The translations under genes were made by a program, and so were the position numbers. From positions 1,998-65,997 of the forward strand of contig CAZRHH010000011.1 in the NCBI GenBank assembly GCA_964599885.1: DNA of 64,000 nt, read 5' to 3'. The notes under the pieces were generated by a model, which saw nothing but the letters and a program-made list of their open reading frames with translations, searched no databases and was not told the DNA's origin. How positions within the stretch are numbered: position 1 is the stretch's first letter; each line of letters opens with the position of its first letter. Of the stretch, positions 1,352 through 49,664 are shown in pieces. The DNA is from an uncultured Dehalococcoidia bacterium (GTDB taxonomy: Bacteria; Chloroflexota; Dehalococcoidia; DSTF01; JACRBR01).

Positions 1352-1943
1352 AGCCCTTGCGAGCGTGAGCGCCCCAGTCGCCCAGAGGTCCCCGACCGAC
1401 GGACTGCTTGATCTGCGTTTTCAGGCTAGGCGATTGCTCGACGACCTATGCGGCGCTCATGAGTCCGCGAGTCGCGCTGCACACGAAATACTGGAGTTCG
1501 TCGATCTAGGTTTAGGCAACGTGGATTGGACTTCGTTTCTTCGCGAGCGGGCGAGGTTGGTACGAGCGGGCGCGTGTAACATACCTGGTCTATCCGCCTC
1601 CGGCCTGGAGTTCACAAGTGCCGTTCGAACGGCACTATTGATTCGCCCCTCCTTGCTGCGAACCGAGCTTCCGGCGCGACAAGTGCGACCATCTGGAGTG
1701 TTCTTGTCGCTGATCGTGATCGACATCCTCATGGAGTACGACCGCGGCTGGCGTAGCTTCGATGCCTCAGACGCGATCCGTCGAACAACGCTGGTGAGGC
1801 TGCTTCGGGCTCACGCGCTAACTCCAATCGTCGGTAACCTGGCGGGCAGAGCGTTCAATGCCGCCCGCTTTCAGTGGTGGAGCGAACCAAGCACTCGCTT
1901 TTCGGGCGAGATAACCCTGCTTGCAGGGTTGCTGTGCCCGTAA
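1311..1943 (+). CDS. Hypothetical protein
   Basis: 210-aa ORF with no recognisable domain. Its start overlaps the previous gene. Confidence 0.3.
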   Translation: MSIAFDLDLRTSIIALASVSAPVAQRSPTDGLLDLRFQARRLLDDLCGAHESASRAAHEILEFVDLGLGNVDWTSFLRERARLVRAGACNIPGLSASGLEFTSAVRTALLIRPSLLRTELPARQVRPSGVFLSLIVIDILMEYDRGWRSFDASDAIRRTTLVRLLRAHALTPIVGNLAGRAFNAARFQWWSEPSTRFSGEITLLAGLLCP

Positions 1944-2076
1944 CAACACGAGCGGACGCCTGGGTTGTGCGATCCGCGTTGCCCGCACATACGCCAGCTC
2001 GACTCAAGAGTTCGTGACCAACCGAAATTAGCGGAACCGGAGAAGAAGGGCGGGTTCAGTCAGCCTTCCCTAAGCT

Positions 2077-2373
2077 CTATCGGAGACTTTGGGGAAGAAC
2101 TAGCTGGCGGTAGTCCGCCGCAAGCAGCACCTCTTCGACGTCGGGAACGTTCAGTTCCATACCGAAGCCGGCGAGCAGAATAATTGCATCGCGGCTCGGT
2201 CGATCCCGTTGGCCGGAGAAGAGACGCGAGACGTAGCTCTCATCGAGCCAGGCGTCGCGCGCGATCTGCGCTTGGGACTTGGTCAGTTGTTCGCGAAACG
2301 TTTGCAGCGTCACGGTGAGAGGGCTGTCCTCGCGCCGCCGCTCGTCACGCCACTGAAGAGCTCTATTGGTCAT
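2077..2373 (-). CDS. XRE-family helix-turn-helix transcriptional regulator
   Basis: HTH-like stretch QAQIARDAWLDESYVSRLFSGQRDRPS. Confidence 0.55.
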   Translation of the reverse strand: MTNRALQWRDERRREDSPLTVTLQTFREQLTKSQAQIARDAWLDESYVSRLFSGQRDRPSRDAIILLAGFGMELNVPDVEEVLLAADYRQLVLPQSLR

Positions 2374-8895: not shown

Positions 8896-10444
8896 TAACT
8901 CCTCCATTCTGGCTAGGGTCAATATCCGTCCCGAATCGGATGTGTACGCAACGTACCAACGGCTGAGCTATAAGCCGTGGTTTGCGCTGGCGGAGTTCGT
9001 GGATAACTCAACTCAAAACTACTACGACAACCGTGATCGTCTCCTGCGCGAGTACGAGAAGAGCCGGCCACCTGAGAAGCTTGTTATCGAGATCGTTTAC
9101 GACAATGAAGCGAACAAACTAACCATTCTGGACAACGCGAACGGAATGGAAATCGACGAACTCACGCGGGCGTTAACGTTGAACCGCCCGCCGCCCAACA
9201 CCGCCGGACGCTCGGAATTCGGAATGGGATTAAAGACGGCGGCGTGTTGGTTCGGCAAGACCTGGACGATCGAGACTAGTCGGCTCGGATCCGTGAGGCG
9301 ACTCACCGCTCAAATACACGTTCCCGATCTCGTCGCTAACAAGACTGAGGAGGTGCCAGTCTCAACGACGCCGGCGGAGCCGCTTGAGCACTTCACGACA
9401 ATCACGATCGAGGGCCTCTACAACCCGATCCGGGGCCGTACGCCCGGCCGAATCCGCGACCAGCTAGCGAGCATCTACCGTCGCGACATCCATTCGGGTG
9501 AAATCGAAATACGCTGGAACAACGAACCGGTTACCTTCCCAGAGCCACCGATTCTCGAAGAGACACTCCCGTCGGGCGAAGTAAAACGTTGGCGAACCGA
9601 TGTTTTCTTCAACGTCGCCTGCGATGGAAGACCCGACGCTCTCCCGGTGCGTGGCTGGCTCGCGATCCGCATCCCGGCGAGTCAACGAGATGCAGGCTTC
9701 GTCCTAATGCGCAAAGGACGGGTGATTGTTGGCGGCCCAGGGGAAGGCTACAAGCCAACGGAGATATTCGGGCAGGGGAACACCTTCCGTTCGCAACGTC
9801 TGTTCGGCGAGTTGGATCTAAATGACTGGCCCGTCTCGCAGGCCAAGGACGCCTTCGATTGGTCAGGGGGCCTGGAGGATGCCTTCATCGAGCGGCTCAA
9901 AGATGTCGCACAAGAGTACATGGATAAGGCAGAAGGTCACCGCTCCGGAGATGCAGTCACTCAAGGCGACATGCAGTTGGCCGCCGAAACCACGCAGCAA
10001 GTCTTTAGCAACCCGCAGTTCACATCTGCCATCGTTGCCGATCTTAGCCAACGGGCCGAAGTAGACGCGTCCGAGGCGGGTTTTGCCGAGGCGTTAGTCT
10101 CGACGAGGTCCGGGCCAATCCTTTATCGCCTCGATTTGGGAACCGAAGCTTGGCAGTTTCGTCTCTACTGGCAAACCCAGAAGAGTGAAGCTCACTGGAT
10201 GCAAGTTCATTACCCAGACGACAACACGATCGACATCTTCCTCAACATGGCCCATCCATTCCTCGAACCTCACGTCACGAACCAACAGTCGCTGGAACTC
10301 ATCAACAAGTTCGTTCTGGCGCTGGCCCTTGCTGAGCGCATGGCTCGTCGCATACATGGCGACGGCCTCGTTGCTCCAGGAGACTTCAGGACGTTCATGA
10401 ATCGCGTCCTGCGTCGAACCGCTGACTTGGAGGGTGGACTATGA
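8888..10444 (+). CDS. GHKL-superfamily ATPase (HATPase_c_3 / MORC-like)
   Basis: The GHKL boxes are present in order: N-box EFVDNSTQN, G1 box LDNANGM, G2 box SEFGMGLKTA. Its ATG overlaps the MTase stop (ATGGGTGA). Confidence 0.65.
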   Translation: MGDNSSILARVNIRPESDVYATYQRLSYKPWFALAEFVDNSTQNYYDNRDRLLREYEKSRPPEKLVIEIVYDNEANKLTILDNANGMEIDELTRALTLNRPPPNTAGRSEFGMGLKTAACWFGKTWTIETSRLGSVRRLTAQIHVPDLVANKTEEVPVSTTPAEPLEHFTTITIEGLYNPIRGRTPGRIRDQLASIYRRDIHSGEIEIRWNNEPVTFPEPPILEETLPSGEVKRWRTDVFFNVACDGRPDALPVRGWLAIRIPASQRDAGFVLMRKGRVIVGGPGEGYKPTEIFGQGNTFRSQRLFGELDLNDWPVSQAKDAFDWSGGLEDAFIERLKDVAQEYMDKAEGHRSGDAVTQGDMQLAAETTQQVFSNPQFTSAIVADLSQRAEVDASEAGFAEALVSTRSGPILYRLDLGTEAWQFRLYWQTQKSEAHWMQVHYPDDNTIDIFLNMAHPFLEPHVTNQQSLELINKFVLALALAERMARRIHGDGLVAPGDFRTFMNRVLRRTADLEGGL

Positions 10445-12570
10445 CGAACGGAGTCATCGGGATCGACGAGGTCCCGGAGGACGATCCACGTTGGGCAGTC
10501 GACATCGATGGCGAGGAACTGACGCACCTTCAAGGTCGCTACCAAGGTAGGGTAGACGCCGACGAGTGGGACGTTGTTCGAGACACCGCAGCTAAACTCT
10601 TGGCGAACTGCCCGAACCCACGGGCACAGCTTCAGACGACTACCGGGCTCGCCCTGGGAAAAGTCCAAAGTGGCAAGACGCTGTCTTATACGGCACTCAT
10701 CTCACTCGGCATCGACAACGGCTACCGGATGTCCGTCGTCCTCGCCGGCACGAAGAACCCATTGTTAAAGCAGAACTTCGACCGTCTTTGCTATGACTTA
10801 GAGACGACCCGCCCCAACATCACACCCATACAAAACCCAACGCCGCTCGATGCCGTGGTGATTCGCTCAGTCATTGAGTCCGGACGGCACCCGCTTCTCG
10901 TGGTGCTGAAACACCGCAAACGTATTGACGAGTTGGTCGCCGCCCTAACGACCGAGGAGTTGACGCGATACCCCACTCTCCTTATCGACGATGAGGGTGA
11001 CGAAGCATCGCTCAATACGCAGTTCAGGCGTGGCCGGCAATCAGCGGTGTACAGCAGTATCCTTCGGCTTCGAGATCGACTTCGGTTTCACGCCTATGTG
11101 GCTTACACGGCGACTCCGCAGGCAAACCTTCTCATCTCCGGTATCGATGGCCTTTCACCCGATTTCGGCGTGTTAGTTCCGCCCGGACGCACGTACTGCG
11201 GCGGGTCGACCTTCTTTGGGCCCCGTCAAAACGAGTTCGTCCGAACGGTGCGTGCACAGGATGCAGCTCAACACGAGGCGACGCGCATTACCCAAAGTCT
11301 GCGCGAAGCATTGGCGGCGTTTGTCGTGGGTGCCGCCATTCGCCATCTTCGCGAGAATGCAGCGTGGCACTCGATGCTGATACATACAAGCCAACTCAAG
11401 GCTGATCACCAGCCATTAGAAAGCACTTTGCGCGAATTGATCGGAGCATGGCGCGACATCTCACGCTTAGACCCGCAAGACCCAACTCACGCCGAACTCT
11501 TCAAAATCTTTCAAACTGCGTTCGCTGATCTGCAGACGACAGTCGGTGAGCAGCCGACGTGGGAGCAAGTTGCTGAACAGATTCCGACAGAGCTTGGCGC
11601 CATCGAAATCTGGATGGTCAATAGCCTACCGGTTGGGCGCGACCCAATCGCGACGCCCTTCCGTCTGATAAACAACATCCTTGTCGGGGGCAACATGTTG
11701 GGTCGCGGGGTTACGATCCCGGGTTTGGCCGTCACCTACATCACTCGCCGCGCACAGAAAGAAACGAACGCCGATACTATGGAGCAGCGAGCTCGTTGGT
11801 TCGGCTACAAGCGGCACTATCTGGACCTCTGCCGAATCTATCTGACGGAGCAGTTGCGGGCCGACTACACACGTCTCCTACGTCACGAGGACGACTTCTG
11901 GGATGCACTCCGCAGGAATGAACGACAAGGGCTTTCTATTCGAGACTGGCCACGTATGTTCGCGCTGGACCTGACGCTGGGCGTATCACCGACGCGGTCG
12001 AGCGTAGCGGATTTTAGACAATTTCATGGGCGGAAGTGGGACACCCAGAACCAGTTGGTCAGAGACGGCCAGAAGGCAGTTGCCAACACCCAGTCCGCGA
12101 GACAATTCCTGTCTGGGCTCAACGGGACGCGGCGGCGGGTCGCCAATGTCGAGCACATCTTTTTCGAGTGTCCAACCGACCAACTCATCACTCAGCTACT
12201 CTCGCGCTTCGACGGTGAGGGATCGGATTGGGAGAACGCGTACACGTGTGAATATCTCACCAGACTCTTCATGGCTGGAGTTCTTCCAACTGTAGACGTC
12301 GTGGCTATGACGAACGGCGACGTACGCGAACGCACCCCCGATAAAAAGCGCGGCGGACGAGTAAATCCAATGCAGGGGCGTTCGCCGAACCGATCACCAG
12401 ATGATCCGTTGTTCTATCCAGGCGACGAGAACATCCATGGTGATCGTGTCCAGTTTCAGCTTCACTTCATCCGTCTAACAGACGATGGAACGGAAACGAC
12501 GGCTTTCGCGCTACACGTTCCCGAGGACGTGCGCTACGACTTGCGTTACGTGGTGAGGGATCCGACCTAA
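10441..12570 (+). CDS. Z1-domain protein (SF2 helicase-like P-loop ATPase)
   Basis: Walker A is GKVQSGKT and Walker B is LLIDDEGDEAS. ATGA overlaps the upstream gene and TAATG overlaps the downstream one. The size and layout are typical of Z1 proteins found next to Dcm and HATPase genes. Confidence 0.6.
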   Translation: MTNGVIGIDEVPEDDPRWAVDIDGEELTHLQGRYQGRVDADEWDVVRDTAAKLLANCPNPRAQLQTTTGLALGKVQSGKTLSYTALISLGIDNGYRMSVVLAGTKNPLLKQNFDRLCYDLETTRPNITPIQNPTPLDAVVIRSVIESGRHPLLVVLKHRKRIDELVAALTTEELTRYPTLLIDDEGDEASLNTQFRRGRQSAVYSSILRLRDRLRFHAYVAYTATPQANLLISGIDGLSPDFGVLVPPGRTYCGGSTFFGPRQNEFVRTVRAQDAAQHEATRITQSLREALAAFVVGAAIRHLRENAAWHSMLIHTSQLKADHQPLESTLRELIGAWRDISRLDPQDPTHAELFKIFQTAFADLQTTVGEQPTWEQVAEQIPTELGAIEIWMVNSLPVGRDPIATPFRLINNILVGGNMLGRGVTIPGLAVTYITRRAQKETNADTMEQRARWFGYKRHYLDLCRIYLTEQLRADYTRLLRHEDDFWDALRRNERQGLSIRDWPRMFALDLTLGVSPTRSSVADFRQFHGRKWDTQNQLVRDGQKAVANTQSARQFLSGLNGTRRRVANVEHIFFECPTDQLITQLLSRFDGEGSDWENAYTCEYLTRLFMAGVLPTVDVVAMTNGDVRERTPDKKRGGRVNPMQGRSPNRSPDDPLFYPGDENIHGDRVQFQLHFIRLTDDGTETTAFALHVPEDVRYDLRYVVRDPT

Positions 12571-15291: not shown

Positions 15292-15537
15292 ATGTCGGAG
15301 AAACCAGCCACCATCATCGTCAACGGTACTCGGCACGAGTGGTCGGAGAAGACCATTTCCCACGCAGAGGTAGTAACGCTTGAGGTGCCTGACTACCCGC
15401 AGCACCCGGAGATCACTTACTCGATCAAATACACGCGCGGGCAAGGAAACAAACCTGAAGGCATCCTGGCTCCCGGTGAGTCTGTAAACGTTAAAGACGG
15501 AATGGTCTTCAGTGTTCAAGAAACTGGTCAGTCGTAA
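15292..15537 (+). CDS. Ubiquitin-like beta-grasp protein (multiubiquitin-like)
   Basis: AGGAGG lies 10 nt before the ATG. The product is 81 aa, with TIIVNGTRHEW ... ITYSIKYTRG ... GESVNVKDGMVFSV, a beta-grasp pattern seen in prokaryotic Ubls encoded beside E1-like genes. Confidence 0.5.
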   Translation: MSEKPATIIVNGTRHEWSEKTISHAEVVTLEVPDYPQHPEITYSIKYTRGQGNKPEGILAPGESVNVKDGMVFSVQETGQS

Positions 15538-16702
15538 CGACGACATTCGTCGCTTAGTTGAAACGGGCTACGCGGTTGCTTTCGACAGCAACTGCCTAGT
15601 CGTCCGCGATATTCCCTACCTCGACGCTGATCGGACGCTGCAAACTGGGGCGATTGTCACAAAGCTAGTGTTCATCGATCAAGAGCGTGTGACACAGGAC
15701 GATCACCAGATCTTCTTCGCAGGCTCCCCGCCGCATGGCCTGAACGGGGAGCCCATTCCCAATCTTGGCGGAGGCCCCACCCAGCTGCCTCTAGGCGAAG
15801 CGAGCAGCGATGTGGTCGTTCAGCGTTCCTTTTCGAACAAACCTAAGAGCGGCGCCTACAGCGATTTCTATGAGAAGATCGAGACGTACGTGACGATCAT
15901 CTCAGGGCCAGCCATAGCGCTCCATCACGTTAGTCCGCGTACCTTCCGTGCAGTCGAGAGCGTTGACCACGACTCGGTCTTCAAGTTCCACGACACTTTG
16001 ACAAGCAGGGCCGAGATTACTGACCTAGCCGCCAAGTTCAAGGATGATGTGGTGGCTGTCATCGGCCTGGGAGGCACGGGCTCGTACGTGCTGGACTTGT
16101 TGGTCAAGACTCCGGTGCGCGAGATCCGAGGGTTCGATAAAGACCTGTACTACGTGCATAACTCGTTTCGCTCGCCAGGGCGACTGGCGTCGAGCGATCT
16201 GGGCCAAAGCAAGGCTGCGGTCTACCTGGAGCGATACTCCGACTTTCGGTACGGCCTCTCCATCGAGGAAAAGTTCATTGATGCATCATCGAACGATGAA
16301 CTTGCGGGCGTCACGTTTGCGTTCGTCTGTGTCGACAAAGGCTCATCCCGCGCGGGGATCTTTGATCTGTTGATCGCGAACCACATACCGTTCATCGACG
16401 TCGGTATGGGTTTGAAGCGAACAGAATGCGGGCTACTCAACGGGCAACTTCGGGTGACGTATTACGCCGGGGAAAACGGCGCGGAGTTCCGTGATAAGCA
16501 ACTAGCGCCTCTGGAAGATGGAGGCGACGATGTGTACCGCGTCAACATACAGACGAGTGAGCTCAATGCATTCAACGCAGCTCTAGCATTAATCAGATTC
16601 AAACAGCTACGGGGGTTCTACATACAGGAGGAGCCTCTATACAATCTTCTATTCGAAATACGTGACCTGAAGATAGTCGGCGCCTCAACCAATGAGATTT
16701 GA
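15512..16702 (+). CDS. E1-like (ThiF/MoeB-family) ubiquitin-activating-type enzyme with an N-terminal domain of unknown function
   Basis: The central Rossmann motif VAVIGLGGTGSYVLDLLVKTPVREIRGFDKD matches the ThiF/E1 nucleotide-binding fold. It overlaps the Ubl gene by 26 nt and the next gene by 11 nt. Confidence 0.6.
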   Translation: MFKKLVSRNDDIRRLVETGYAVAFDSNCLVVRDIPYLDADRTLQTGAIVTKLVFIDQERVTQDDHQIFFAGSPPHGLNGEPIPNLGGGPTQLPLGEASSDVVVQRSFSNKPKSGAYSDFYEKIETYVTIISGPAIALHHVSPRTFRAVESVDHDSVFKFHDTLTSRAEITDLAAKFKDDVVAVIGLGGTGSYVLDLLVKTPVREIRGFDKDLYYVHNSFRSPGRLASSDLGQSKAAVYLERYSDFRYGLSIEEKFIDASSNDELAGVTFAFVCVDKGSSRAGIFDLLIANHIPFIDVGMGLKRTECGLLNGQLRVTYYAGENGAEFRDKQLAPLEDGGDDVYRVNIQTSELNAFNAALALIRFKQLRGFYIQEEPLYNLLFEIRDLKIVGASTNEI

Positions 16703-34200: not shown

Positions 34201-35246
34201 TGCCGATTGGCGCGAAACAAGGTCATCCCGCTTCGTGGGCAATCTGGATGTGCTCCGCGATGTTGATGGCGCTTGTGACATCGAACCCGCTGTACCACGC
34301 AACGATCGCGCTTTGCGCGTTGGTTGTGTACGCAAGCGTACGGTCGGACAGGACGCGAGGCCTGGAGGTCTTACTGGTCGCGGGCCTCATCCTCTCGTGT
34401 CTCAGCATCCTCCTCAACCTGGTGACGGGCAGCACGGGGCCGACCGAAGTGTTCGTGCTGCCCGGCGCTACGCTGCCGGGGTGGCTCGGTTCGGTCACCC
34501 TGGGCGGCCGGGTCACGGCCGAGTCGCTGGTCTACGCTGCCGATCAGGCTCTCGCGCTGGTTGCTCTCCTCTGCATCATCTGCGCGTTCAATGCCAGCAT
34601 CGATCACTTTCAGCTCCTCAAGCTAACGCCGCCGGGGCTGGCGCAACTGGGTGTTGTCGTCAGCGTCGGACTGCTTCTCGTGCCGGAGACGCTCGCCCGC
34701 GCGCGGACGTTGCGTGAGGCGCACATCAGTCGCGGGCGCAACGTTGGCTTCGGAACTATTCCATCATCGCTGCTCTCCTTGTTGAGCGACGGTCTCGAAC
34801 GCGCCGTCCAGCGGGCGGAGTCGCTTGACGCCCGCGGGTTCGGAGCGATGGCCGCGCCGCCACGACGGAGCGAAACTACGTTTTCGATCGGCGGCCTCGT
34901 GCTGGCCGCCGTCGGCGCGTTCTCCTGGTACTACGCGGAAGACGGGCGGCCGCTGGCGGCGACAGCTCTACTTTTCGGCGCGCTGCTGGTGATCTCCGTC
35001 GCCTGGCGTCAAGCGTCGCGCGGGACTGCGCGCCGGCTGTACGTCGCGACGTGGAGAAGGACGGATCTGTTCGTCGTCTCGGCGGCGATCGTGGGCGCCG
35101 TTGCGTTCTTCGCCCTCCGTGTAGGAGGGGGCAACCAGATCGACTATCTGCCGTTCCCGGTGGTGCATGCACCTGGCTACGGCATCGCTGCCGCAGCCGC
35201 TTGTTTGTTGCTGCTCGCACCGGTAATCACGAGGAACGAGCCTTGA
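34197..35246 (+). CDS. ecfT: ECF transporter transmembrane (T) component
   Basis: Polytopic membrane protein with an EcfT/CbiQ-like layout. Overlaps the neighbouring genes. Confidence 0.6.
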   Translation: MMPIGAKQGHPASWAIWMCSAMLMALVTSNPLYHATIALCALVVYASVRSDRTRGLEVLLVAGLILSCLSILLNLVTGSTGPTEVFVLPGATLPGWLGSVTLGGRVTAESLVYAADQALALVALLCIICAFNASIDHFQLLKLTPPGLAQLGVVVSVGLLLVPETLARARTLREAHISRGRNVGFGTIPSSLLSLLSDGLERAVQRAESLDARGFGAMAAPPRRSETTFSIGGLVLAAVGAFSWYYAEDGRPLAATALLFGALLVISVAWRQASRGTARRLYVATWRRTDLFVVSAAIVGAVAFFALRVGGGNQIDYLPFPVVHAPGYGIAAAAACLLLLAPVITRNEP

Positions 35247-36829
35247 AGCCGATCGTCGAGGCCGCGGCGCTGAGCTTCGCCTATGGAGCGTCAGCCCGTT
35301 GTGTCTTGCGTGAGCTTGATCTCCGCGTAGGAGAAGGAGAGCTCGTGCTGCTGGCTGGCCCCTCGGGCGGCGGAAAATCCACGCTTCTCCGATGTTTGAA
35401 CGGACTGATCCCGCACTTTCACGGCGGCAGATTTTCCGGGCGTGTGCTCGTCGGGGGACTCGATACGCGTGAGCATCAGCCTCGCGACATCGCATCCGTC
35501 GCGGGGCTCGTCTTCCAAGAGCCGGAAGCACAGAGTGTCGCCCGCACCGTGCAGGAAGAGATCGTTTTCGGCATGGAGAACCGCGGGTTCGATCGCGCTC
35601 TCATGCGCAAACGGCTCGAAGAGGCGCTCGATGCTCTCGGGATCGCTGCGCTTCGGACACGGGAGCTCGCGACGCTCTCCGGTGGCGAGCTGCAACGCGT
35701 CGCAATTGCCGCTGTCCTGACGATGCAGCCGCGCCTCATTTTGATGGATGAGCCAACCTCGCAGCTCGATCCGCAGGCGGCGGACGATGTTCTGCGCCTG
35801 GCTCGCGATCTACGCGAAGACCACGGCCTGACCGTCGTCCTCTCCGAGCACCGGCTGGATCGCGTTGCCTCCTACGTCGATCGCGTTCTGCATCTGCCGG
35901 GCGACGGCAGTGTGCAGACCCTCGCGCCACGCGATGCGATGCGCGTCCTGGTGGGAGCACCACCTGTCACCCAGATCGCGCGGGCGATGGAGTGGTCACC
36001 ATTGCCGCTATCGATCGCGGAGGCACGGCGCTTTCTTCCTGCCAACAAACACGGCTCCACACAACCATCTACGCCAGCAGTTACGGGCGATATCCTCGCT
36101 TCGATCCACAACATCACCGTACAGCTCGCTGGCCGAACGGTGCTGACAGTTGAGCGCATGACATTTCGCGAAGGCGAGTGCGTCGGCCTGATGGGCCGAA
36201 ACGGCGCGGGAAAGACGACCCTTCTTCGAGCGCTGGCCGGGCTCTTACGACCGAACACGGGTCGTCTCGCAGGCTTGACCGCCTTCGAGGCTCGCGTTCG
36301 GTACAAGGATATTGCGTTCGTTCCCCAGGATCCCGCGGCGACTCTGTTCAAGGCCACGCTCGAAGCCGAAGTAGGCGATGTTCTGGACGGCACGGGCCGC
36401 ACCGGTACCCTCGACGCCACACTCGCCGAATGGGATCTCGAACGCTTCCGGGAGCGTGACCACCGAGATTTGAGTGTCGGCGAACGGCAGCGAGCTGCTC
36501 TCGCGGCGCTTCTCGTCGGTCGACCGCGAATGATCCTGCTCGATGAGCCGACCCGGGGCATGGATGCAGCTACGAAGTCGCTCTTGTTGCGAAACCTCAA
36601 GCGTCGTTGTCGAGACGGTGCATGCGTGCTCCTGGCGAGCCACGACGTAGAACTCGTGGCGATGTTTGCCGATCGCGTTGTCCTGCTCGCGGAAGGCGAA
36701 GTGGTGCTCGACGCGCCGGCCCGCAGGGTCCTCACCGGTTCAATCACGTTCTCGACGCAGGCGAACAAGCTCGTCGGTGGCGATGTCCTCACAACAGAGG
36801 AAGCACTCGCGACGCTGGGGAGAACCTGA
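35243..36829 (+). CDS. ECF transporter duplicated ATPase (fused EcfA-EcfA', two ABC NBDs)
   Basis: Two Walker A motifs (GPSGGGKST, GRNGAGKTT) and two signature motifs (LSGGELQRVAIA, LSVGERQRAALA). TTG start at 35243 overlaps the ecfT stop. Confidence 0.75.
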   Translation: MKPIVEAAALSFAYGASARCVLRELDLRVGEGELVLLAGPSGGGKSTLLRCLNGLIPHFHGGRFSGRVLVGGLDTREHQPRDIASVAGLVFQEPEAQSVARTVQEEIVFGMENRGFDRALMRKRLEEALDALGIAALRTRELATLSGGELQRVAIAAVLTMQPRLILMDEPTSQLDPQAADDVLRLARDLREDHGLTVVLSEHRLDRVASYVDRVLHLPGDGSVQTLAPRDAMRVLVGAPPVTQIARAMEWSPLPLSIAEARRFLPANKHGSTQPSTPAVTGDILASIHNITVQLAGRTVLTVERMTFREGECVGLMGRNGAGKTTLLRALAGLLRPNTGRLAGLTAFEARVRYKDIAFVPQDPAATLFKATLEAEVGDVLDGTGRTGTLDATLAEWDLERFRERDHRDLSVGERQRAALAALLVGRPRMILLDEPTRGMDAATKSLLLRNLKRRCRDGACVLLASHDVELVAMFADRVVLLAEGEVVLDAPARRVLTGSITFSTQANKLVGGDVLTTEEALATLGRT

Positions 36830-37814
36830 GATGCGATGGATCATTCTGTTCGTGGCGACTGTCGTGCTCGCGATGGGTGCCGTGCCGAGTCGCGCTCACG
36901 CCTCATCGGCCATCGTCACATCCGATGCGGGTTGCGTGCAGAGCGCGGCTTCGGCCGCCGTCAACCAGGCCGGACTCGTCGTCACCTTTGGTGATGGACG
37001 CACGGTCACGTTCTGTGTCGAATTCGGCGAGGACTCGATCACCGGTCTTGAACTGCTTCAACGCTCCGGCCTGCAGTTGGTCACCTCGAATTCGAGCGGC
37101 CTTGGAGCGGCTGTGTGCAGCATTGACGGCGAAGGTTGCCAGGATCCGGGTGACTGCTTTTGCAAGTGCAAGGGAGGAAGCTGCGAGTACTGGGCCTATT
37201 ATCTGTACGACGATGGTGGCTGGAAGTTCTCACCTGTTGGCGCGGGCAATCGCTCCGTTCACGACGGCGACACCGACGGTTGGGCCTGGGGCGGAGGTTC
37301 TGGCGACACGCCGAACGGGAATGCTCCGGCGTGTGCCGAACCCACGCCGACGACTACGGTGGTACCGCCTCCGACACCTCGTCCATCCGCGACTCCGAGA
37401 GCGTCCGCCCCGACGGTTCCTCTAGAGCCGTCGGCAACGAGCGCTTCTCAAATTATCGAGACGAGCACGCTGGCTCCCACGGTACAGCTAGCCGTTCCAC
37501 CGCCCATTCCTACGGCTCCCGTTGTTCCCACGGTAGCGGTCCTTTCCGGAGTTCAGACGCCACGACAGCCGACGTCACCTTCTGGCACCCCGACCGCCAC
37601 CAGCAGTGAGCGTTCCGATCCCAGCGCGACGCCGTCGCGCGAGGCACGGGCGGGCGCTACTCGCGTGAGTGCCGATGAAGGTACGCGCAACCTGTCGACG
37701 CGCGCGGGTGGCGGCGGTTCCAGCCGGCTGAGCCTTGTCACGTTTGGCGCGGTTGCGGCCGTTCTCGCTGGTACCGCCAGCGTAGTGATCTGGAGACGCC
37801 GTGGTCGCGTCTGA
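36829..37814 (+). CDS. Secreted Cys-rich protein with a Pro/Thr stalk and C-terminal membrane anchor
   Basis: Signal peptide. Cys-rich domain CFCKCKGGSCEYWAYYLYDDGGW, reminiscent of ECF-associated substrate-capture proteins (DUF4430-like). C-terminal TM + RRRGRV. Confidence 0.45.
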
Positions 37815-38634
37815 CATCCGCATCCCTCGCGCACGGTTCACGCTCGCGTCGCGCCACGGCAGTACGGTCGCGATCGCTGTCATCAGCGCAGTAGGTGTCG
37901 CTGCATTCTTTTATCCGTTCATTACGGCGGGAGCGGCACAGGGAACGGAAGCGCAGGCCCATGCGGGCGATGCGCCCCTGATCTTTGGTACGCTCGCTGC
38001 CCTGGCGGGCGTGCTCTTCGTCGTGGAGCTCGCGTCGCAAGGCATGAACGCCAAGGTCGCTTCCGTGCTGGCTGTGTTGGCGACCGCTGCTGCCGCTCTT
38101 CGGATCGTTCCTCTGCCGGCCGGCGCAACGGCATTTTTCTTCCTGATCATCCTGAGCGGATACGTCTTCGGACCACGATTTGGCATGCTGCTGGGCGCCT
38201 TGGCCCTATTCGTTTCCGCGTTTGCCGTCGGCGGGTTCGGCCCATGGGTTCCGTTCCAGATGTTTGCGTCAGCGTGGATCGGCATGACCGCCGGTTGGCT
38301 CGGCGGCATGCGGCATGTCCTTGCCGGACGGCCGCGTATTGAGGTCGCTCTCCTCGCGTTGTTTGGTGGCGCCTGGGGCTTTGCTTACGGCGCACTGATG
38401 AATCTCTGGTTCTGGCCTTACATCGCCACTGGAGAGAATGTTTCGTGGGCGCCGGGGTTAGGTTTCGTGGAAACCCTTCGCCACTACTGGGCGTTCTACG
38501 TGCTGACGTCGTTCGGATGGGACGCGTGGACCGCACTGGGAAATGTGGTGCTTATCGCCGTCGCGGGACGGTCGGTGCTGCGGGTGCTTTTGCGATTCCG
38601 CGATCGGTTCACTGTTCAGTGGCGGTCGCTCTGA
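37801..38634 (+). CDS. ECF transporter substrate-specific (S) component-like membrane protein
   Basis: Six or seven TM helices, about 277 aa, last gene of the ECF cluster. GTG start. Confidence 0.45.
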   Translation: MVASDIRIPRARFTLASRHGSTVAIAVISAVGVAAFFYPFITAGAAQGTEAQAHAGDAPLIFGTLAALAGVLFVVELASQGMNAKVASVLAVLATAAAALRIVPLPAGATAFFFLIILSGYVFGPRFGMLLGALALFVSAFAVGGFGPWVPFQMFASAWIGMTAGWLGGMRHVLAGRPRIEVALLALFGGAWGFAYGALMNLWFWPYIATGENVSWAPGLGFVETLRHYWAFYVLTSFGWDAWTALGNVVLIAVAGRSVLRVLLRFRDRFTVQWRSL

Positions 38635-41538: not shown

Positions 41539-41919
41539 TTAGCTGCCGGCGGACTGGAAGAGCTCGATCGGATTGCCGGAGGGGTCGTCGAGCAGGATCT
41601 GCTTCCCTCCCGGACCGGTGACGATGTCATTGCGGAAGCGCACGCCTTCGGCTCGCAGGCGCTCAACCTCGGCCGCGATGTCATCGACCACGAAGTGGAT
41701 CCGGTTCCAGCCACCGGGGACCGGCTGGGCACCGTCGGGCATGGGACGCGCGGCGGAGCTCTGAGGCCCGCTCAGCAGGATGCGCAGATTGCCCCGGAAG
41801 ACATCGGCGAAGGCCGGGGCGTTGGTGCCGATCGTGAAACCGAAATGCTTCGTGTAGAAGTCGACCGCGCTAGGGACGTCCTCGACCATGTAGCGGACGC
41901 TGACGGTGTCTTCGGGCAT
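41539..41919 (-). CDS. VOC-family (glyoxalase/bleomycin-resistance) protein
   Basis: 126 aa with the typical VOC betaalphabetabetabeta layout (YMVEDVPSAVDFYTKHFGF ... IHFVVDDIAAEVERLRAEGVRF). Confidence 0.65.
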   Translation of the reverse strand: MPEDTVSVRYMVEDVPSAVDFYTKHFGFTIGTNAPAFADVFRGNLRILLSGPQSSAARPMPDGAQPVPGGWNRIHFVVDDIAAEVERLRAEGVRFRNDIVTGPGGKQILLDDPSGNPIELFQSAGS

Positions 41920-41932
41920 GGGACTAACCTCC

Positions 41933-42709
41933 TTACGGGTGCTGTTGGATGACGTGAAGCATGAACCGCACGCGGTTCTCGATGTCCGCCGCGGTACGCT
42001 GAAACGCCGGATAGCTCTCCTCGTTGGTGTCCCCCTCCAGCGCCGGATCGGCGATGCTCCAGTGGATGCGTTCGGGCCCCCCTGGGAATTCGGGGCATGC
42101 CTCCCGCACCCGGTCGCAGAGGGTGACCACGTAATCGAAGCGCCGCCGCGCGAACCGGCTTAGGTGCTGGGATCGTTTCGAGCTGATGTCGATGCCCCGC
42201 TCGCGCATCACCCTGACCGCGTTCTGATGCATGCTCTTGGGATGACTGCCGGCACTGTGAACGTCGACGGTCTCGCCGGCCAGCTGCCGGAGCAGCGCCT
42301 CGGCGATCTGCGAGCGGGTGCTGTTGCCCGTGCACAGAAACAGGACGCGGACGCGGCGCCCTTGAGCCGCATAGCTGTCTCCGACGGGGGGTGCGAGGGC
42401 AAGCCCCGGGTGGAGCGCTCCGCCGGCGTCCGCCAGCAGCTCCCGGCATCGAGCGAGATCGACGCGGTAGTAGGCGTCTCGCCCATCGGCCGAGCTTCGC
42501 CGCATCGACACCAACTGGCCTGCCCGCAACCGGGCGAGGTGGTAGGAGACCAGGCTCTGTGGCGTGCGGAGCACCTTCGTGAGCTCGCGAACCTGCCGGT
42601 CGCTACCGGCGAGTTCGCGGAGCAACTGCCAGCGCAGCGGGTGTCCGGCGAGTTGCAGGAAGCTCGGGGGGGCGGTCATCGGGCGAAGCTCCATGCTCAT
42701 GGTCACCAC
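41933..42709 (-). CDS. ArsR-family HTH regulator fused to an LMW-PTP-type arsenate reductase domain
   Basis: N-terminal ArsR wHTH. C-terminal P-loop VLFLCTGNSTRSQIAEAL (CX5R of the LMW PTP/ArsC family). Confidence 0.7.
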   Translation of the reverse strand: MVTMSMELRPMTAPPSFLQLAGHPLRWQLLRELAGSDRQVRELTKVLRTPQSLVSYHLARLRAGQLVSMRRSSADGRDAYYRVDLARCRELLADAGGALHPGLALAPPVGDSYAAQGRRVRVLFLCTGNSTRSQIAEALLRQLAGETVDVHSAGSHPKSMHQNAVRVMRERGIDISSKRSQHLSRFARRRFDYVVTLCDRVREACPEFPGGPERIHWSIADPALEGDTNEESYPAFQRTAADIENRVRFMLHVIQQHP

Positions 42710-44559: not shown

Positions 44560-45219
44560 TCATCGCTTCGCTACCGGCCGCCCCTCCGACATCCATTCCG
44601 GCCATCCGCCTTCAAGGCGCACCGCGTCGAAGCCGCGCTCGCGCAAGAGAGCGACCGCTTCATCCGCAAACAAGCAATACTCGCCACGGCAGTAGGCGAC
44701 GATCCGTTTGTTGCGCGGCAGCTCCTTGATGCGCTCATCGAGTTCCTCGATGGGAATGGATAACGCACCAGCGACGTGACCGTGTTCAAACTCCATCGCC
44801 GGACGCACGTCGACCAGTACGGCTTCGCCCTGCTTGAGGAGCCGTTGTAGCTCTTTCCGAGGCAGCTCCCGGTCACCGCCGTTTCCCGAAAAGTCGTCGC
44901 GTAGCCTTCCTATCTCGGGAAGCCGCTCCGCGGCCACGCCACGGAGGGCAAGCCAAAGCGATGTCACGGCCGGCGTTGCCAACCGGTAGACGACGCTCGT
45001 ACCGCGGCGCTCTGATTCCACGAGCCGCGCGTTCTTCAGGATTTGGAGGTGCTGCGAGACGTTGGCGAGCGTCATGCCCGTCTCGGCCGCCAGGGCATCG
45101 ACGCGCCGTGGCGCTTGAGCCAGAAGGTCGACAAGCTCGAGGCGACTGTCGCTTGCCAGGGCCTGGGCGACGCGCGCGAACTCCGGGTAGAGCCGATCCT
45201 TGAATTCACGGTGGGCCAT
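44560..45219 (-). CDS. ArsR-family regulator fused to a rhodanese domain
   Basis: ArsR HTH (LANVSQHLQILKNARLV), then a rhodanese domain with active-site CRGEYC. Confidence 0.65.
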   Translation of the reverse strand: MAHREFKDRLYPEFARVAQALASDSRLELVDLLAQAPRRVDALAAETGMTLANVSQHLQILKNARLVESERRGTSVVYRLATPAVTSLWLALRGVAAERLPEIGRLRDDFSGNGGDRELPRKELQRLLKQGEAVLVDVRPAMEFEHGHVAGALSIPIEELDERIKELPRNKRIVAYCRGEYCLFADEAVALLRERGFDAVRLEGGWPEWMSEGRPVAKR

Positions 45220-45338
45220 GGCAAGAGTGTGCCTCAGGATCATCAGATAGTCAATATATCAAGCAATCACTTGACAGCTAGGGTATTCCCGGGTTAGGAT
45301 CGCGCATCGTCAGACGCACAGACTGCAGAGGAGAACTC

Positions 45339-45470
45339 GTGGCACGCCGTATTGACTGCCCGTGCGGGCACGTCCTTCGAGGAGCGGACGACGAGGAACT
45401 CTTCAGACTGGCGCGGATCGACGACGAGGTCCGGGCGGGCGTCGTCGCCGACGCGCGCGACGAGTAGAAC
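45339..45470 (+). CDS. DUF1059-like small protein (possibly truncated)
   Basis: GAGGAG lies 7 nt before GTG 45339. VARRIDCPCGHVLRGADDEELFRLARIDDE matches the CPCG ... GADDEEL signature of DUF1059. The product is shorter than is typical. Confidence 0.3.
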
Positions 45471-45752
45471 CGCTCCAGGTCGGAAAGGGATCGGACGGAG
45501 CCGCCCAGATGCACTACTACGTCGAAAAGATTGTCGAGCACAGGTTTGAGGAAGCAAATCCGAACACAGAGGAATGCGCACTTCCTACGGGAAGAGCGCG
45601 CGCTTCGCCAGCGGCGCCGATCAGAACTGCTTCGGTCGGTCATCTGTCACCTCACGAGCTTGGACCGCTCTTTGAATGTGCGTGGAGACGCCCGATGGGG
45701 CGCCATACGCGCGGCCGACGCACGGGGCGCATAGTACCGATACGGATGGGAT

Positions 45753-46562
45753 GTGGTCATGGTAGATCAGGTAGTAGCCGCCAACGTCGATCGCGAACGA
45801 CTACGCCGCCAGATAAGCGAGAAGTACACAGAAGTCGCGCAAGAGCCAGAGAAAGGGTTCCACTTCCATACGGGACGACCGCTGGCAATGATGCTTGGCT
45901 ACGACGCCCAAGACATCGACATCCTTCCCACTGGCACCGTTGATTCTTTCGCCGGAACGGGTAACCCCTTCTCTCTAGGAAGGCTGAACGCCGGCGAGAC
46001 GGTGCTCGACATCGGCTGCGGCGCAGGGTTCGACACGCTGCAGGCGGCGATGCAGGTAGGGCCGCGCGGACGCGTCATTGCCGTGGATATGACCGAGGCG
46101 ATGCGCGCGAAGACCAGCACGGCAGCAGCCGCGCTCGGCCTCACGAACGTAGATGTACGCCACGGCTTTATGGAAGAGTTGCCGGTTGATGACGCGAGCG
46201 TCGATGTCGTGATCAGCAACGGCGTCATCAACCTGACGCCGGACAAAGTCGGCGTCATGCGCGAAGTCTTTCGTGTGCTGAAGCCGGCCGGACGCTTCCA
46301 GATCGGCGACATCGTCGTCCACAAGGAAGTGCCGCAGGAAGCGAAGGACGACATCGATCTATGGTCTGGCTGAATTGCCGGTGCTCTGCTGTATGCAGAG
46401 TGGAACTGGGTGCTGGAGCACGTCGGCTTCCGGGACGTCCGCTGGGGGCGTGAGGTCGATGTCTTCTCGGGTTCGAAGCACGAGTCGGAAGCAAGGGACT
46501 TCGATACGCGCGGCGTGACGTTCGCCGGTGTCAAGCCCCCAACGGAAGGCGACTCAGCATGA
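45753..46562 (+). CDS. ArsM/AS3MT-family SAM methyltransferase-like protein interrupted by an in-frame TGA at 46371..46373
   Basis: SAM motif VLDIGCGAGFD and the ISNGVINLTPDK motif. The TGA falls where homologues have the As(III)-binding Cys (..DLWSG[TGA]IAGALLYAEW ..). The frame continues 62 codons and ends ATGA-coupled to the next gene. Either a selenocysteine or a disrupted gene. Confidence 0.5.
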
Positions 46563-47050
46563 CGTTGTCTGTAACGCGCCGCCGGTTGCTCGCTATCCAG
46601 GGATTCGACGAGGTCGACGGAGCAACGCTGGCCCAAACCGAACGCTGGCTGCGTATGTCGCCGGCGCTCTGCGCAGTCGTCGCAGCGGTGGGCACTGCGC
46701 TCGCGTCTCCCTGGATCCTCTGGACACTCGCCGCGGTCGCGGCACTTGGTGCGGCGCTTCCGTTCCATCCCTTCGACCTGATCTATAACCTGGGCGTTCG
46801 ACGCCTCACCGGCACGCCCAAGCTTCCCGCAAACGGGTCGCCGCGACGCTTCGCCTGTGGCATGGCGAGCGTGTGGTTGATCACGACCGGCGCGTTGTTT
46901 GCCGCCGGACTCAACGTTGCAGGTTACGCGCTGGGCTTCACGTTTGTGGCGACGGCCACGCTCGTCGCGACCACGCACATTTGTATTCCGTCGATGATCT
47001 TCAGGACAGCATGCGGCCAGATGCCATCATTCCGAACCGGCGCGTCGTAG
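46559..47050 (+). CDS. DUF4395-like small membrane protein
   Basis: 163 aa with four TM segments. Translationally coupled to the ArsM-like gene. Confidence 0.45.
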   Translation: MTLSVTRRRLLAIQGFDEVDGATLAQTERWLRMSPALCAVVAAVGTALASPWILWTLAAVAALGAALPFHPFDLIYNLGVRRLTGTPKLPANGSPRRFACGMASVWLITTGALFAAGLNVAGYALGFTFVATATLVATTHICIPSMIFRTACGQMPSFRTGAS

Positions 47051-48306
47051 GCGCCACCGCCCCGTCGGCGGGCCTGCGTCTCGGGCTGTCGGCGAACTGG
47101 CAGCAGTTCGCTCTGCTCGTTGCCACGAACGCCTTCGTCGGAGGAATGGTCGGGCTCGAACGATCGGTCCTGCCGGTGCTGGCCCGCGATGAGTTCGGTA
47201 TTGCGTCCAAGACCGCCGCCGTGTCGTTCATCGCGGCGTTCGGCCTGGCGAAGGCGCTCGCGAACCTTTTCGCCGGGCGTTTATCTGAGCGCTTCTCGCG
47301 ACGGTCGATCCTTATCGCCGGATGGCTCGTGGGCGCCCCGGTACCGCTGATGATCATCTTCGCCCCAACATGGAGTTGGATCGTCGGCGCCAACCTGCTG
47401 CTCGGATTGAATCAAGGCCTCACCTGGTCAATGACCGTCAATATGAAGATCGACCTCGTCGGGCCGCGTCAACGCGGTCTGGCGTTGGGGCTCAACGAGG
47501 CCGCGGGCTATCTGTCCGTCGCTGCGGCCGCGTTCGCCGCCGGTGTCATCGCCAGCGCCTACGGGCTGCGGCCGGAACCGTGGTATCTGGGCATCGCGTT
47601 CGCGGCGGCCGGGCTGGCGCTCAGCGTGCTCTTCATCAGAGACACGGCGCCGCACATGCGCTTAGAGTCGGAACGGCTGAACGCCGGGGAACCCCCGGCT
47701 CCCTCGCTTGCGCTCAGTTTTGCGCGCGGGACGTGGCGCGACGCACATCTCGTCGGCATCTCGCAAGCGGGCTTCGTTAACAATCTCAACGACGGTCTGG
47801 CTTGGGGCATCTTCCCGCTGTTCTTCGCGAGCCGCGGCCTGTCGCTCGAGCGCATCGCCGTCCTTGCCGCGATCTATCCGCTTGTCTGGGGCGGTCTCCA
47901 AATCGGTACGGGATGGGCGAGCGACTGGCTCGGCAGGAAGACGCCGATCGTGAGCGGCATGATCATGCAGGCCATCGCGATCTCGATGATCGGATTCGGC
48001 GACGATTTCAGGACATGGTTCGCCGCGCTGTTCGTTCTCGGGTTAGGCACCGCGATGGTCTATCCGGCGTTGCTCGCGGCGACAGGCGATGCTGTTCCGC
48101 CGGGCGAACGCGCGACGGCATTGGGCGTCTATCGCTTCTGGCGCGACGGCGGAGCGATCGCAGGAGCGCTCGTCGCTGGGGCGCTCGCAGACGTCTTCAG
48201 CTTCAACATCGCGATTCAGGTAGTGGCGGCGATCACGGCGATGTCCGGCATCGCTGCGGCCGTAGCGTTGCGCGGAAAGCAATCGGCGAGAGAGGTGCCC
48301 GCATGA
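47011..48306 (+). CDS. MFS transporter
   Basis: Twelve TM helix pattern. MFS motif-A-like LAKALANLFAGRLSERFSRR. Confidence 0.7.
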   Translation: MRPDAIIPNRRVVGATAPSAGLRLGLSANWQQFALLVATNAFVGGMVGLERSVLPVLARDEFGIASKTAAVSFIAAFGLAKALANLFAGRLSERFSRRSILIAGWLVGAPVPLMIIFAPTWSWIVGANLLLGLNQGLTWSMTVNMKIDLVGPRQRGLALGLNEAAGYLSVAAAAFAAGVIASAYGLRPEPWYLGIAFAAAGLALSVLFIRDTAPHMRLESERLNAGEPPAPSLALSFARGTWRDAHLVGISQAGFVNNLNDGLAWGIFPLFFASRGLSLERIAVLAAIYPLVWGGLQIGTGWASDWLGRKTPIVSGMIMQAIAISMIGFGDDFRTWFAALFVLGLGTAMVYPALLAATGDAVPPGERATALGVYRFWRDGGAIAGALVAGALADVFSFNIAIQVVAAITAMSGIAAAVALRGKQSAREVPA

Positions 48307-49664
48307 AGGTAATCCCATTCGTGCACGAAGGACTCGGCAACAGTTCGTACCTGGTGGGACTCGATGACGGGCGTGCGATCGCCATCGATCCCGACCGGAG
48401 CGTTAGTCGATACCTTCGCACAGCCGAAGCGCACGGCTGGAACATCGACTCGGTGCTTGAGACGCACCTCCACGCGGACTTCGTCTCAGGAGCAAACGAA
48501 CTGGTCGCGCAGGCGGGCGCGAGGCTGTTCGTTCCTGCTGGCGCCGAATCGAAACTTGCACATCATCCTGTGCAGCCGGGCGACAAGATCACGCTCGACG
48601 GCATTGAGGTGGGAGCGATCGCATCACCGGGCCATACGCCGGAGCATCTGAGCTATGTGCTTCGGCTGGGGCCGCAGCCGCCTGTGCTTTTCAGCGGCGG
48701 TTCGCTGATCGTTGGCGGCGCGGCGCGCACCGACCTGATTGCACCTGAAGCGACGGAGTCGCTTACACGCGCGCAGTTTCGCACGCTGAAGCATGCCTTC
48801 GTGACTCTTCCCGACGAAACGCTGCTCTATCCAACGCACGGAGGAGGCTCCTTCTGTTCCGCCGGCAGCGGCGGCGAGCGCACATCGATGCTTGGAGCGG
48901 AACGGCTGAGCAACCCCGCGATGAACGTGGAGACGGAAGATGAATTTGTGCGCTGGTTTCCGGGGACGTTCCCTGCGGCGCCCGCGTACTTCTTCCGCAT
49001 GCGGGCGTTCAACCAGGCGGGGCCGCGACTGCGCGGCGACATAGCGATGCCGCGAACACTGGCGGCCGCGGAGTTCGAAGAGGCGGCACCAGCCGCTCTG
49101 GTGATCGACACACGATCCGTGGAGGAGTATTCCGCCGCGCATATTCAGGGATCGCTGCACATCGCCTTCCGCGATGTCTTTCCCGTATGGCTTGGCTGGC
49201 TCGTTCCGGCGGATACAAGATTGCTGTTCGTCGCCAGCAAAGAGTCGCTCGATGCGATCGTGGGTGAGTGCCTGCTGGTGGGATACGAGAACTTCGGCGG
49301 GTGGCTCGATGGCGGAGTTGACGCATGGCGCGCGACGGGGCGGCTGCTCTCGTCCGTAGGGTTCGTGGACGGTAGGCACGCGAGATCACTGATAGCCGAC
49401 GGATCGGAAGCAATCGACGTGCGCGAGCCGGATGAGTTCGCGCTCGGGCACCTGCCGGCTGCGCGGCACGTCCCGCTCGGGAGGCTCGCGCAGCAACAAC
49501 TGGATGGCTCCAGCGACAAGCCGGCGGTGGTGTATTGCGGACATGGCGAACGGGCTTCGACGGCGGCCTCGATCCTCGAACGGTCGGGCCGTAACTCTGT
49601 TACTAACGTCCGCGGCGGGTATCCCGCTTTGAAGGCGGCCGAAGAAGGGAGGACCGATGAGTGA
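48303..49664 (+). CDS. MBL-fold metallo-hydrolase fused to rhodanese domains (persulfide dioxygenase-like)
   Basis: HxHxDH metal site THLHADFVSG ... SPGHTPEH. The C-terminal rhodanese has VVYCGHGERA. Confidence 0.7.
   Translation: MKVIPFVHEGLGNSSYLVGLDDGRAIAIDPDRSVSRYLRTAEAHGWNIDSVLETHLHADFVSGANELVAQAGARLFVPAGAESKLAHHPVQPGDKITLDGIEVGAIASPGHTPEHLSYVLRLGPQPPVLFSGGSLIVGGAARTDLIAPEATESLTRAQFRTLKHAFVTLPDETLLYPTHGGGSFCSAGSGGERTSMLGAERLSNPAMNVETEDEFVRWFPGTFPAAPAYFFRMRAFNQAGPRLRGDIAMPRTLAAAEFEEAAPAALVIDTRSVEEYSAAHIQGSLHIAFRDVFPVWLGWLVPADTRLLFVASKESLDAIVGECLLVGYENFGGWLDGGVDAWRATGRLLSSVGFVDGRHARSLIADGSEAIDVREPDEFALGHLPAARHVPLGRLAQQQLDGSSDKPAVVYCGHGERASTAASILERSGRNSVTNVRGGYPALKAAEEGRTDE

Follow-up and report, generated by a model that had tools for sequence, protein, structure and literature searches.

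An ArsM-like methyltransferase gene with a conserved in-frame UGA, a probable selenoprotein gene shortened in public annotation, in an uncultured Dehalococcoidia bacterium

Here we describe a probable selenoprotein gene from an uncultured Dehalococcoidia bacterium, located in a 64,000-nt stretch of a metagenome-assembled genome (MAG; GenBank assembly GCA_964599885.1, contig CAZRHH010000011.1, positions 1,998 to 65,997 of the forward strand), which we refer to as the window and whose coordinates are used throughout. The gene lies on the plus strand at 45759-46562 and encodes an ArsM-like class I S-adenosylmethionine (SAM)-dependent methyltransferase that, judged from translation, Pfam and NCBIfam matches and the starts of orthologues, is complete at 267 aa with one predicted selenocysteine (Sec). 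Translation of the open frame from 45753 to 46562 places a single internal stop in it, the TGA at 46371-46373, beyond which the same frame continues for 62 sense codons (46374-46559), beginning IAGALLYAEWNWVLEHVGF, until the stop TGA at 46560-46562, which forms an ATGA with the start codon of the next gene (ATG, 46559). An earlier reading made from the letters of this DNA alone (the sequence-only reading) had proposed that this TGA is the only interruption, that the frame resumes for 62 codons and that the extended frame is coupled to the next gene, and translation bears out all three. A GTG at 45753 offers an alternative start; orthologue starts (P0012) match the ATG at 45759, and the gene is therefore likely to span 45759-46562. 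Counted from the ATG the UGA is codon 205 and from the GTG codon 207, and it opens a U-I-A-G sequence (46371-46382) of the UxxG type. The 62 codons that follow would make up the C-terminal part of the methyltransferase and be translated only upon recoding of the UGA. The public protein P0012, which is 100% identical, is annotated as 204 aa and cut at 46373.

Relatives of this protein fall into two forms that differ at the TGA column. A protein search returned close homologues of ∼261 aa (65-78% identity) and of ∼204 aa (80-100% identity over the shared part). Cys occupies the column in all 13 full-length homologues aligned (LWSxC-IAGAL), and the seven ∼204-aa homologues aligned (P0012 and six others at 81-93% identity) all stop at LWSG, one residue short of it. 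At the DNA level we collected 45 loci from a one-genome-per-species collection and 80 metagenome loci, among which the column could be located in 115 (∼35 species-level MAGs and 80 metagenome contigs); it reads TGA in 111 and TGC in four. The TGA-form loci are 48-100% identical to the window protein and derive from Dehalococcoidia, other Chloroflexota, Rokubacteria/Methylomirabilota and unassigned soil, sediment and groundwater contigs. A full scan of 1.84 billion cluster representatives agrees with this: among the 150 nearest 50%-identity representatives, 42 stop immediately in front of the Sec column. In nearly all TGA loci the frame stays collinear for ∼55-65 codons beyond the TGA, with the motifs DVFSGS.HES.A..F.T.G kept, and across 25 Chloroflexota sequences the mean ratio of nonsynonymous to synonymous substitution rates (dN/dS) is 0.29 for the 53 codons that follow the TGA, compared with 0.15 for the 53 that precede it. 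The codons downstream of the TGA are under purifying selection. The sequence-only reading had argued from the logic of Sec/Cys pairs that a UGA exactly at a catalytic Cys position is a mark of Sec, and had named an orthologue alignment at this column as a check; the alignment gives the expected exchange, and the argument is further supported by purifying selection and by the covarying hairpin described below.

The same comparisons bear on two explanations that would deny the TGA any function. If the gene were a nonsense-disrupted pseudogene, the TGA would terminate translation and the 62 codons would be a decaying remnant, as the 204-aa product of the public gene callers implies. A few relatives do look degraded: L021 carries an in-frame TAA/TAG 36 codons past the Sec codon, L030 has lost the Sec column in a deletion and L039 combines hairpin mismatches with altered flanking residues, each reflecting either decay or an assembly error. 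We nevertheless regard a pseudogene as very improbable, given a TGA kept in several phyla at identities down to 48%, the lack of further stops downstream, the dN/dS of 0.29, the ATGA coupling of the next gene to the end of the extended frame, and the fact that truncation would remove the region whose ArsM homologue takes part in substrate binding. A sequencing or assembly error in place of a true TGC or TGT might be suspected in a MAG, however we consider its probability negligible. An independent Logan assembly of SRR6868922 (L001) has the identical TGA, more than 100 independent assemblies of relatives carry it, and the downstream hairpin co-occurs with TGA only. The sequence-only reading had cautioned that the gene might be a diverged non-arsenic methyltransferase, a pseudogene or an error; with TGA in 111 of 115 loci the latter two can be set aside, and divergence from ArsM, probably away from arsenic, is the part of the caution that stands.

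Directly after the UGA lies a hairpin of the selenocysteine insertion sequence (SECIS) type (46383-46401, plus strand; gCUCUGC-UGUAU-GCAGAGu), with six Watson-Crick pairs and a closing G.U pair. RNAfold includes it in the minimum free energy structure, with z = -2.99 for the 71-nt context. The stem starts 9-10 nt after the UGA and the apical loop, UGUAU, begins 16 nt after it. The sequence-only reading had correctly recognised the 6-bp stem, although it put the CTCTGC arm 12 nt after the TGA when this arm starts at 46384, 10 nt after it. Taken as a single sequence, the hairpin is of weak significance: a comparable one follows 50 of the 1715 TGA triplets of the window (∼3%), and the case therefore rests on comparison with relatives.

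For this comparison we used a gap-free alignment of 103 distinct Sec-form segments, each of 48 nt from the TGA on, in which columns 13-19 form the helix with columns 25-31. The helix is paired in 96.4% of cells, as against 20-51% in controls with the 3′ side shifted by 1-3 columns, and none of 500 shuffles matched the observed pairing or covariation score. Compensatory double changes occur at 14-30 (CG to GC, four sequences), 15-29 (UA to CG, two sequences) and 18-26 (GC to CG, eight sequences), and certain lineages have instead a perfect hairpin in a shifted register, CUCCUC-GUC-GAGGAG. The GCU and GCA alanine codons of the stem are near-invariant at the third position, whereas the host genomes elsewhere vary freely at synonymous sites. 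Cys-form genes (n = 9) encode a similar peptide and retain just 2-5 of the seven pairs. Folding the hairpin and following its conservation had been named earlier as checks, and in both respects it holds up, being kept with compensatory changes in the TGA forms only. Bacterial SECIS elements are modelled with an apical loop ∼16-37 nt after the UGA and a G among the first loop positions; the hairpin at 46383-46401, whose second loop base is G in 93 of the 103 sequences, fits this description, and we read the UGA and the hairpin together as a bacterial Sec codon with its SECIS.

Several observations weigh against this interpretation. The hairpin is embedded in a conserved peptide, GALLxAEW, and its conservation is partly at the protein level; the covariation comes from 14 cells at three pairs. 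No Rfam SECIS model had a match in the window at the gathering threshold or in a permissive scan of 46340-46460, which returned unrelated families at chance level (E 3.5-7.8). Bacterial SECIS elements are gene-specific, and for this reason no Rfam match is expected. NCBIfam and Pfam searches of ∼35 open reading frames (ORFs) found no match to selA, selB or selD in the 64-kb window; tRNA-Sec is likewise absent from the window, in which ARAGORN finds zero tRNAs, and none was found in the related loci retrieved. By a codon-position GC test the window contains no other credible gene with an in-frame TGA, the one at 46371 alone being credible. Reassignment of TGA in the genetic code was considered separately and ruled out, as the gene itself and 30 of the 54 heuristically called ORFs of the window stop at TGA.

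The UGA could also be read through without Sec, either by hairpin-stimulated insertion of a near-cognate Trp, Cys or Arg or by a SelB-like delivery of Cys, and both the lack of Sec machinery in the 64-kb window and the indirect identification of the inserted residue are consistent with such decoding. It is nonetheless quite improbable, given that every homologue with a sense codon in this column has Cys there, which is the signature of Sec/Cys exchange, that the distance of the hairpin from the UGA and its loop G agree with the bacterial SECIS model and that UxxG is curated as Sec in the NCBIfam ArsM-type models and in the literature. The Sec trait is, moreover, known in Chloroflexi, which include Sec-decoding organisms with an unusual 8/4 tRNA-Sec (PMC1794560, PMC5322559, PMC5389517). 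We strongly infer that the inserted residue is Sec and not another amino acid. Overall, we place the probability that the gene at 45759-46562 encodes a Sec-containing ArsM-like methyltransferase at roughly 85%, and the public annotation almost certainly shortens a 267-aa selenoprotein wrongly to 204 aa.

In the mechanism we propose, a ribosome arriving at the UGA at 46371-46373 would be served by the hairpin within the coding region, which would recruit SelB-GTP-Sec-tRNA(Sec) as in the standard bacterial SECIS mechanism. Recoding would yield the 267-aa enzyme, and stopping at the UGA an inactive 204-aa fragment. The Sec would then take the place that Cys224, a substrate-binding residue, has in ArsM, beside the methyl group of SAM.

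What this enzyme acts on is a separate question, and here the relationship to ArsM has to be considered residue by residue. Pfam assigns the protein a class I SAM methyltransferase domain (Methyltransf_31/25/11), and its closest solved structures are ArsM enzymes (5EVJ, E 1.3e-26; 4FR0, E 3.9e-23). The best NCBIfam models, searched with Cys substituted for Sec (a change with little effect on the score), were NF041537 (228 bits), NF041536 (225) and NF047649 (205), over residues ∼10-240, and NF008823 (226). All four scores are below the respective cut-offs (510, 575, 460 and 263), which counts against the family fit. Alignment to 4FR0, 4KW7 and 5EVJ, with residues numbered from the GTG at 45753, places the TGA (residue 207) on CmArsM Cys224, Thr69 on Cys72 and Gly157, in SNGVINL, on Cys174, and the CC motif around Cys44 is replaced by FHFHT within an N-terminal stretch of 88 residues that contains no Cys. 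The sequence-only reading had aligned the TGA to an arsenic-binding Cys of ArsM, which the solved structures identify as Cys224, and had warned that the Cys residues of the SNCVINL and YYGCG positions are Gly and Thr here; these are Gly157 and Thr69.

The replacements extend to the whole branch to which the window protein belongs, a large paralogous one within the ArsM family that retains a single Cys/Sec among these positions. Alignment of the nearest clusters shows (F/Y)HFHT, Thr/Val/Ala, Gly and Cys-or-Sec in this branch at the positions where canonical proteins have the CC motif, Cys72, Cys174 and Cys224. Among the 150 nearest representatives, 31 are canonical (C, C, C) and none of them is truncated at the Sec column, about 31 represent the Cys form of the single-Cys branch, and the 42 that end at the Sec column have Gly at the Cys174 column in all but one case and Cys in none. 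In ArsM, Cys174 and Cys224 jointly bind As(III)/MAs(III), both being required, and the N-terminal cysteines (the CC motif around Cys44, and Cys72) are needed for the first methylation. Canonical arsenite methylation by this branch appears unlikely because Cys174 of the arsenic-binding pair is missing, and the protein is probably a diverged, non-arsenic methyltransferase.

The genomic context points in a similar direction. The methyltransferase is predicted to be the first gene of an operon in which it is followed, on the plus strand and with little space between them, by genes for a DUF4395 membrane protein, an MFS transporter and a metallo-beta-lactamase (MBL)-rhodanese protein. The DUF4395 gene (46559-47050; Pfam PF14340) is ATGA-coupled to the methyltransferase and has an equal position in related loci L127-L131. 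The MFS transporter gene (47011-48306; Pfam MFS_1, 2e-43; approximate start at ATG 47011 in the ORF 46873-48306) adjoins the methyltransferase in 28 related loci. The last product (48312-49664; Pfam Lactamase_B and two Rhodanese domains) combines an MBL fold of the glyoxalase II or persulfide-dioxygenase-like kind with rhodanese, and the NCBIfam models GSH_gloB and bifunc_ST_SDO (Blh) both match it below cut-off. On the minus strand, divergent from the methyltransferase, lies a gene for an ArsR-family helix-turn-helix (HTH) domain fused to rhodanese (44560-45243; Pfam HTH_5 and Rhodanese, NCBIfam HTH_metalloreg), whose product is likely to be the operon regulator and which adjoins the methyltransferase in 42 related loci (35 Sec-form, seven Cys-form). 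The cluster is common to Sec-form and Cys-form orthologues, several of which have TusA and DsrE directly upstream of the methyltransferase; about half of the ∼115 loci, many of them short-flanked, have at least one partner within 3 kb, other phyla included. By their domain content these conserved neighbours would be genes of sulfane-sulfur trafficking and detoxification, not ars genes, which suggests sulfur or selenium chemistry rather than arsenite methylation.

In the main functional rival, the enzyme would truly methylate arsenite or methylarsenite, and Sec would be an arsenic ligand. The appeal of this reading lies in the ArsM structures as closest relatives (E 1e-23 to 1e-26), in the 226 bits to the ‘arsenite methyltransferase’ model NF008823, in the name that the family carries in the literature and in two further genes of the window. 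One, 3.5 kb upstream of the methyltransferase (41933-42709, minus strand), encodes a fusion of an arsenate reductase of the thioredoxin type (LMWP) with an ArsR-type HTH; the other is an adjoining glyoxalase-fold gene (41539-41919, minus strand). The fusion weighs against a sulfur function and makes an arsenic link in this genome possible, however the pair stands beside the methyltransferase in none of the ∼115 other loci examined, where the conserved neighbours are those of sulfur trafficking. Taken with the NF008823 score under its cut-off, the subfamily-wide loss of the CC motif, Cys72 and Cys174 (no Cys at the Cys174 column in any of the 42 Sec-type representatives), the retention of all the cysteines in the 31 untruncated canonical representatives and the requirement for both Cys174 and Cys224 in As(III)/MAs(III) binding, this makes an arsenic-methylating enzyme unlikely.

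As a tentative alternative, which we would stop short of calling probable, the enzyme may bind a soft chalcogen or metalloid species, such as sulfane sulfur, sulfide or selenide, through its Sec and methylate it, instead of arsenite, for export. Sec, or Cys in other lineages, would capture this species, possibly passed on by rhodanese, TusA or DsrE, before methylation; the product would leave via the MFS and DUF4395 proteins, with the ArsR-rhodanese protein as the sensor of the stress. We are more doubtful still of a wider form of this scheme, under which the single-thiol Sec/Cys branch as a whole would be a reactive sulfur/selenium methyltransferase fed by rhodanese/TusA/DsrE, served by MFS/DUF4395 export, controlled by ArsR-rhodanese and never acting on arsenic.

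Some features of the locus and its relatives are recorded here in their own right. The ArsR-rhodanese gene and the methyltransferase are separated by an unusually long 515 nt (45244-45758), compared with ∼120 nt in relatives, and this stretch contains a plus-strand ORF of 42 aa (45339-45467; VARRIDCPCGHVLRGADDEELFRLARIDDE) that has no Pfam match and could be a small or truncated gene. Beside the orthologous operon of L127 (5030-5875, minus strand) is an ABC ATPase that carries a fused YHS domain, accompanied by two permeases of the FtsX type; lists of selenoprotein families include YHS-domain proteins. The Binatia locus L036 contains a second, more distant methyltransferase paralogue (∼1692-2080, plus strand), in which the corresponding column is also an in-frame TGA (AAVAG*LAGTLAEP). 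Five relatives with extra N-terminal domains (P0126, P0130, P0144, P0154 and P0121) also end exactly before the Sec column, their architectures being DUF2652-methyltransferase and CMD/AhpD-methyltransferase-methyltransferase, and further fused architectures of this selenoprotein, truncated in databases, probably exist.

Elsewhere in the window, the sole Rfam match at the gathering threshold is a cobalamin riboswitch (RF00174; 32643-32783, plus strand; 67 bits, E 2e-14). Downstream of it are an energy-coupling factor (ECF)/ABC-type ATPase (35051-36829) and, at 37801-38634, an ECF substrate component, and the locus probably encodes a transporter regulated by B12 or cobalt. On the left side of the window (1-30000, for example 10441-12570 and 15512-16702, both plus strand) the G+C content is lower, at 0.55-0.60 compared with 0.62-0.69, and there are an MzaC-like Z1-domain ORF (anti-phage MZA model, far below cut-off), a PRK06153-family ORF and several large ORFs without a family match. 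A defence or mobile island may be present here.

Selenoproteins of the ArsM type have been known since 2007-2008. Arsenite methyltransferase (NF008823/PRK11873) appears in a 2026 review among the selenoprotein families, with the motif UxxG (PMC13188914). The review credits the ‘arsenite S-adenosylmethyltransferase’ selenoproteins to a Sec/Cys-pair search by Fomenko et al. 2007, and they were also found in the Global Ocean Sampling (GOS) metagenome (PMC2398784). Three aspects of our comparison, which we did not find stated in the searchable literature, may go beyond this published picture: the 111:4 ratio of TGA to TGC in the sampled loci, the confinement of Sec among the 150 nearest clusters to a branch without the arsenic-binding cysteines, and the consistent placement of this branch in an operon of rhodanese, TusA, DsrE and persulfide-dioxygenase-like genes. 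A literature search on DUF4395 or on methyltransferases in persulfide operons found nothing relevant.

On a practical level, dozens of related cluster representatives are also called as fragments, so that selenoproteins are under-counted in Dehalococcoidia and in other bacteria of soils and sediments. All of the sampled Sec-bearing ‘ArsM’ relatives lack the arsenic-binding Cys pair and are placed in operons of predicted sulfur-trafficking genes, and counting them as arsM in environmental surveys of arsenic cycling may mislead. If the sulfur/selenium function proposed above were true, the ‘arsenite methyltransferase selenoprotein’ family would be misnamed and, with the sampled loci overwhelmingly Sec-encoding, a widespread route to volatile methylated sulfur or selenium compounds would exist in soils and sediments.

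The locus can be compared with known systems at the level of the operon and of the protein. Its domain content resembles the cst system of S. aureus (CstR, CstA, CstB) and BigR-Blh of Xylella and Agrobacterium, which likewise combine an ArsR-type regulator, a persulfide-dioxygenase-like MBL-rhodanese protein and a transporter; the likeness includes TusA/DsrE-type carriers, found in relatives of the window locus, and is one of domain content only. Neither system is known to have a SAM methyltransferase or DUF4395, and they differ from the window locus in that its regulator is itself fused to rhodanese. With canonical ArsM/AS3MT (CmArsM, 4FR0/4FS8; Chlamydomonas ArsM, 5EVJ) the protein shares the class I SAM core, at ∼35% identity over ∼190 residues, and the SN-x-V-x-NL and (C/U)-x-x-G-A-L motifs, with Sec on Cys224. 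It differs from them in the change of the CC motif to FHFHT, of Cys72 to Thr and of Cys174 to Gly, in having no C-terminal domain (267 aa compared with ∼370-400 aa) and in being encoded apparently outside an ars operon. The double selenoproteins of NCBIfam, NF041537 (ArsM/AhpD), NF041536 (ArsM/DUF2284) and NF047649 (methyltransferase/UXPK-star), are the best-scoring models and have the same UxxG, but they have an additional domain (AhpD, DUF2284 or a UXPK tail) and two Sec residues, whereas the window protein has one domain and one Sec. The closest counterpart is the ArsM-type UxxG selenoprotein family, whose published example is WP_011987699.1. The window protein departs from it in scoring below the NF008823 cut-off and perhaps in belonging to a branch without the other ArsM cysteines. 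In both, most characterised homologues carry Cys, and the two share the fold, a single Sec in U-x-x-G at the Cys224 column and a SECIS hairpin within the coding sequence directly downstream; the window gene is a further member of this family.

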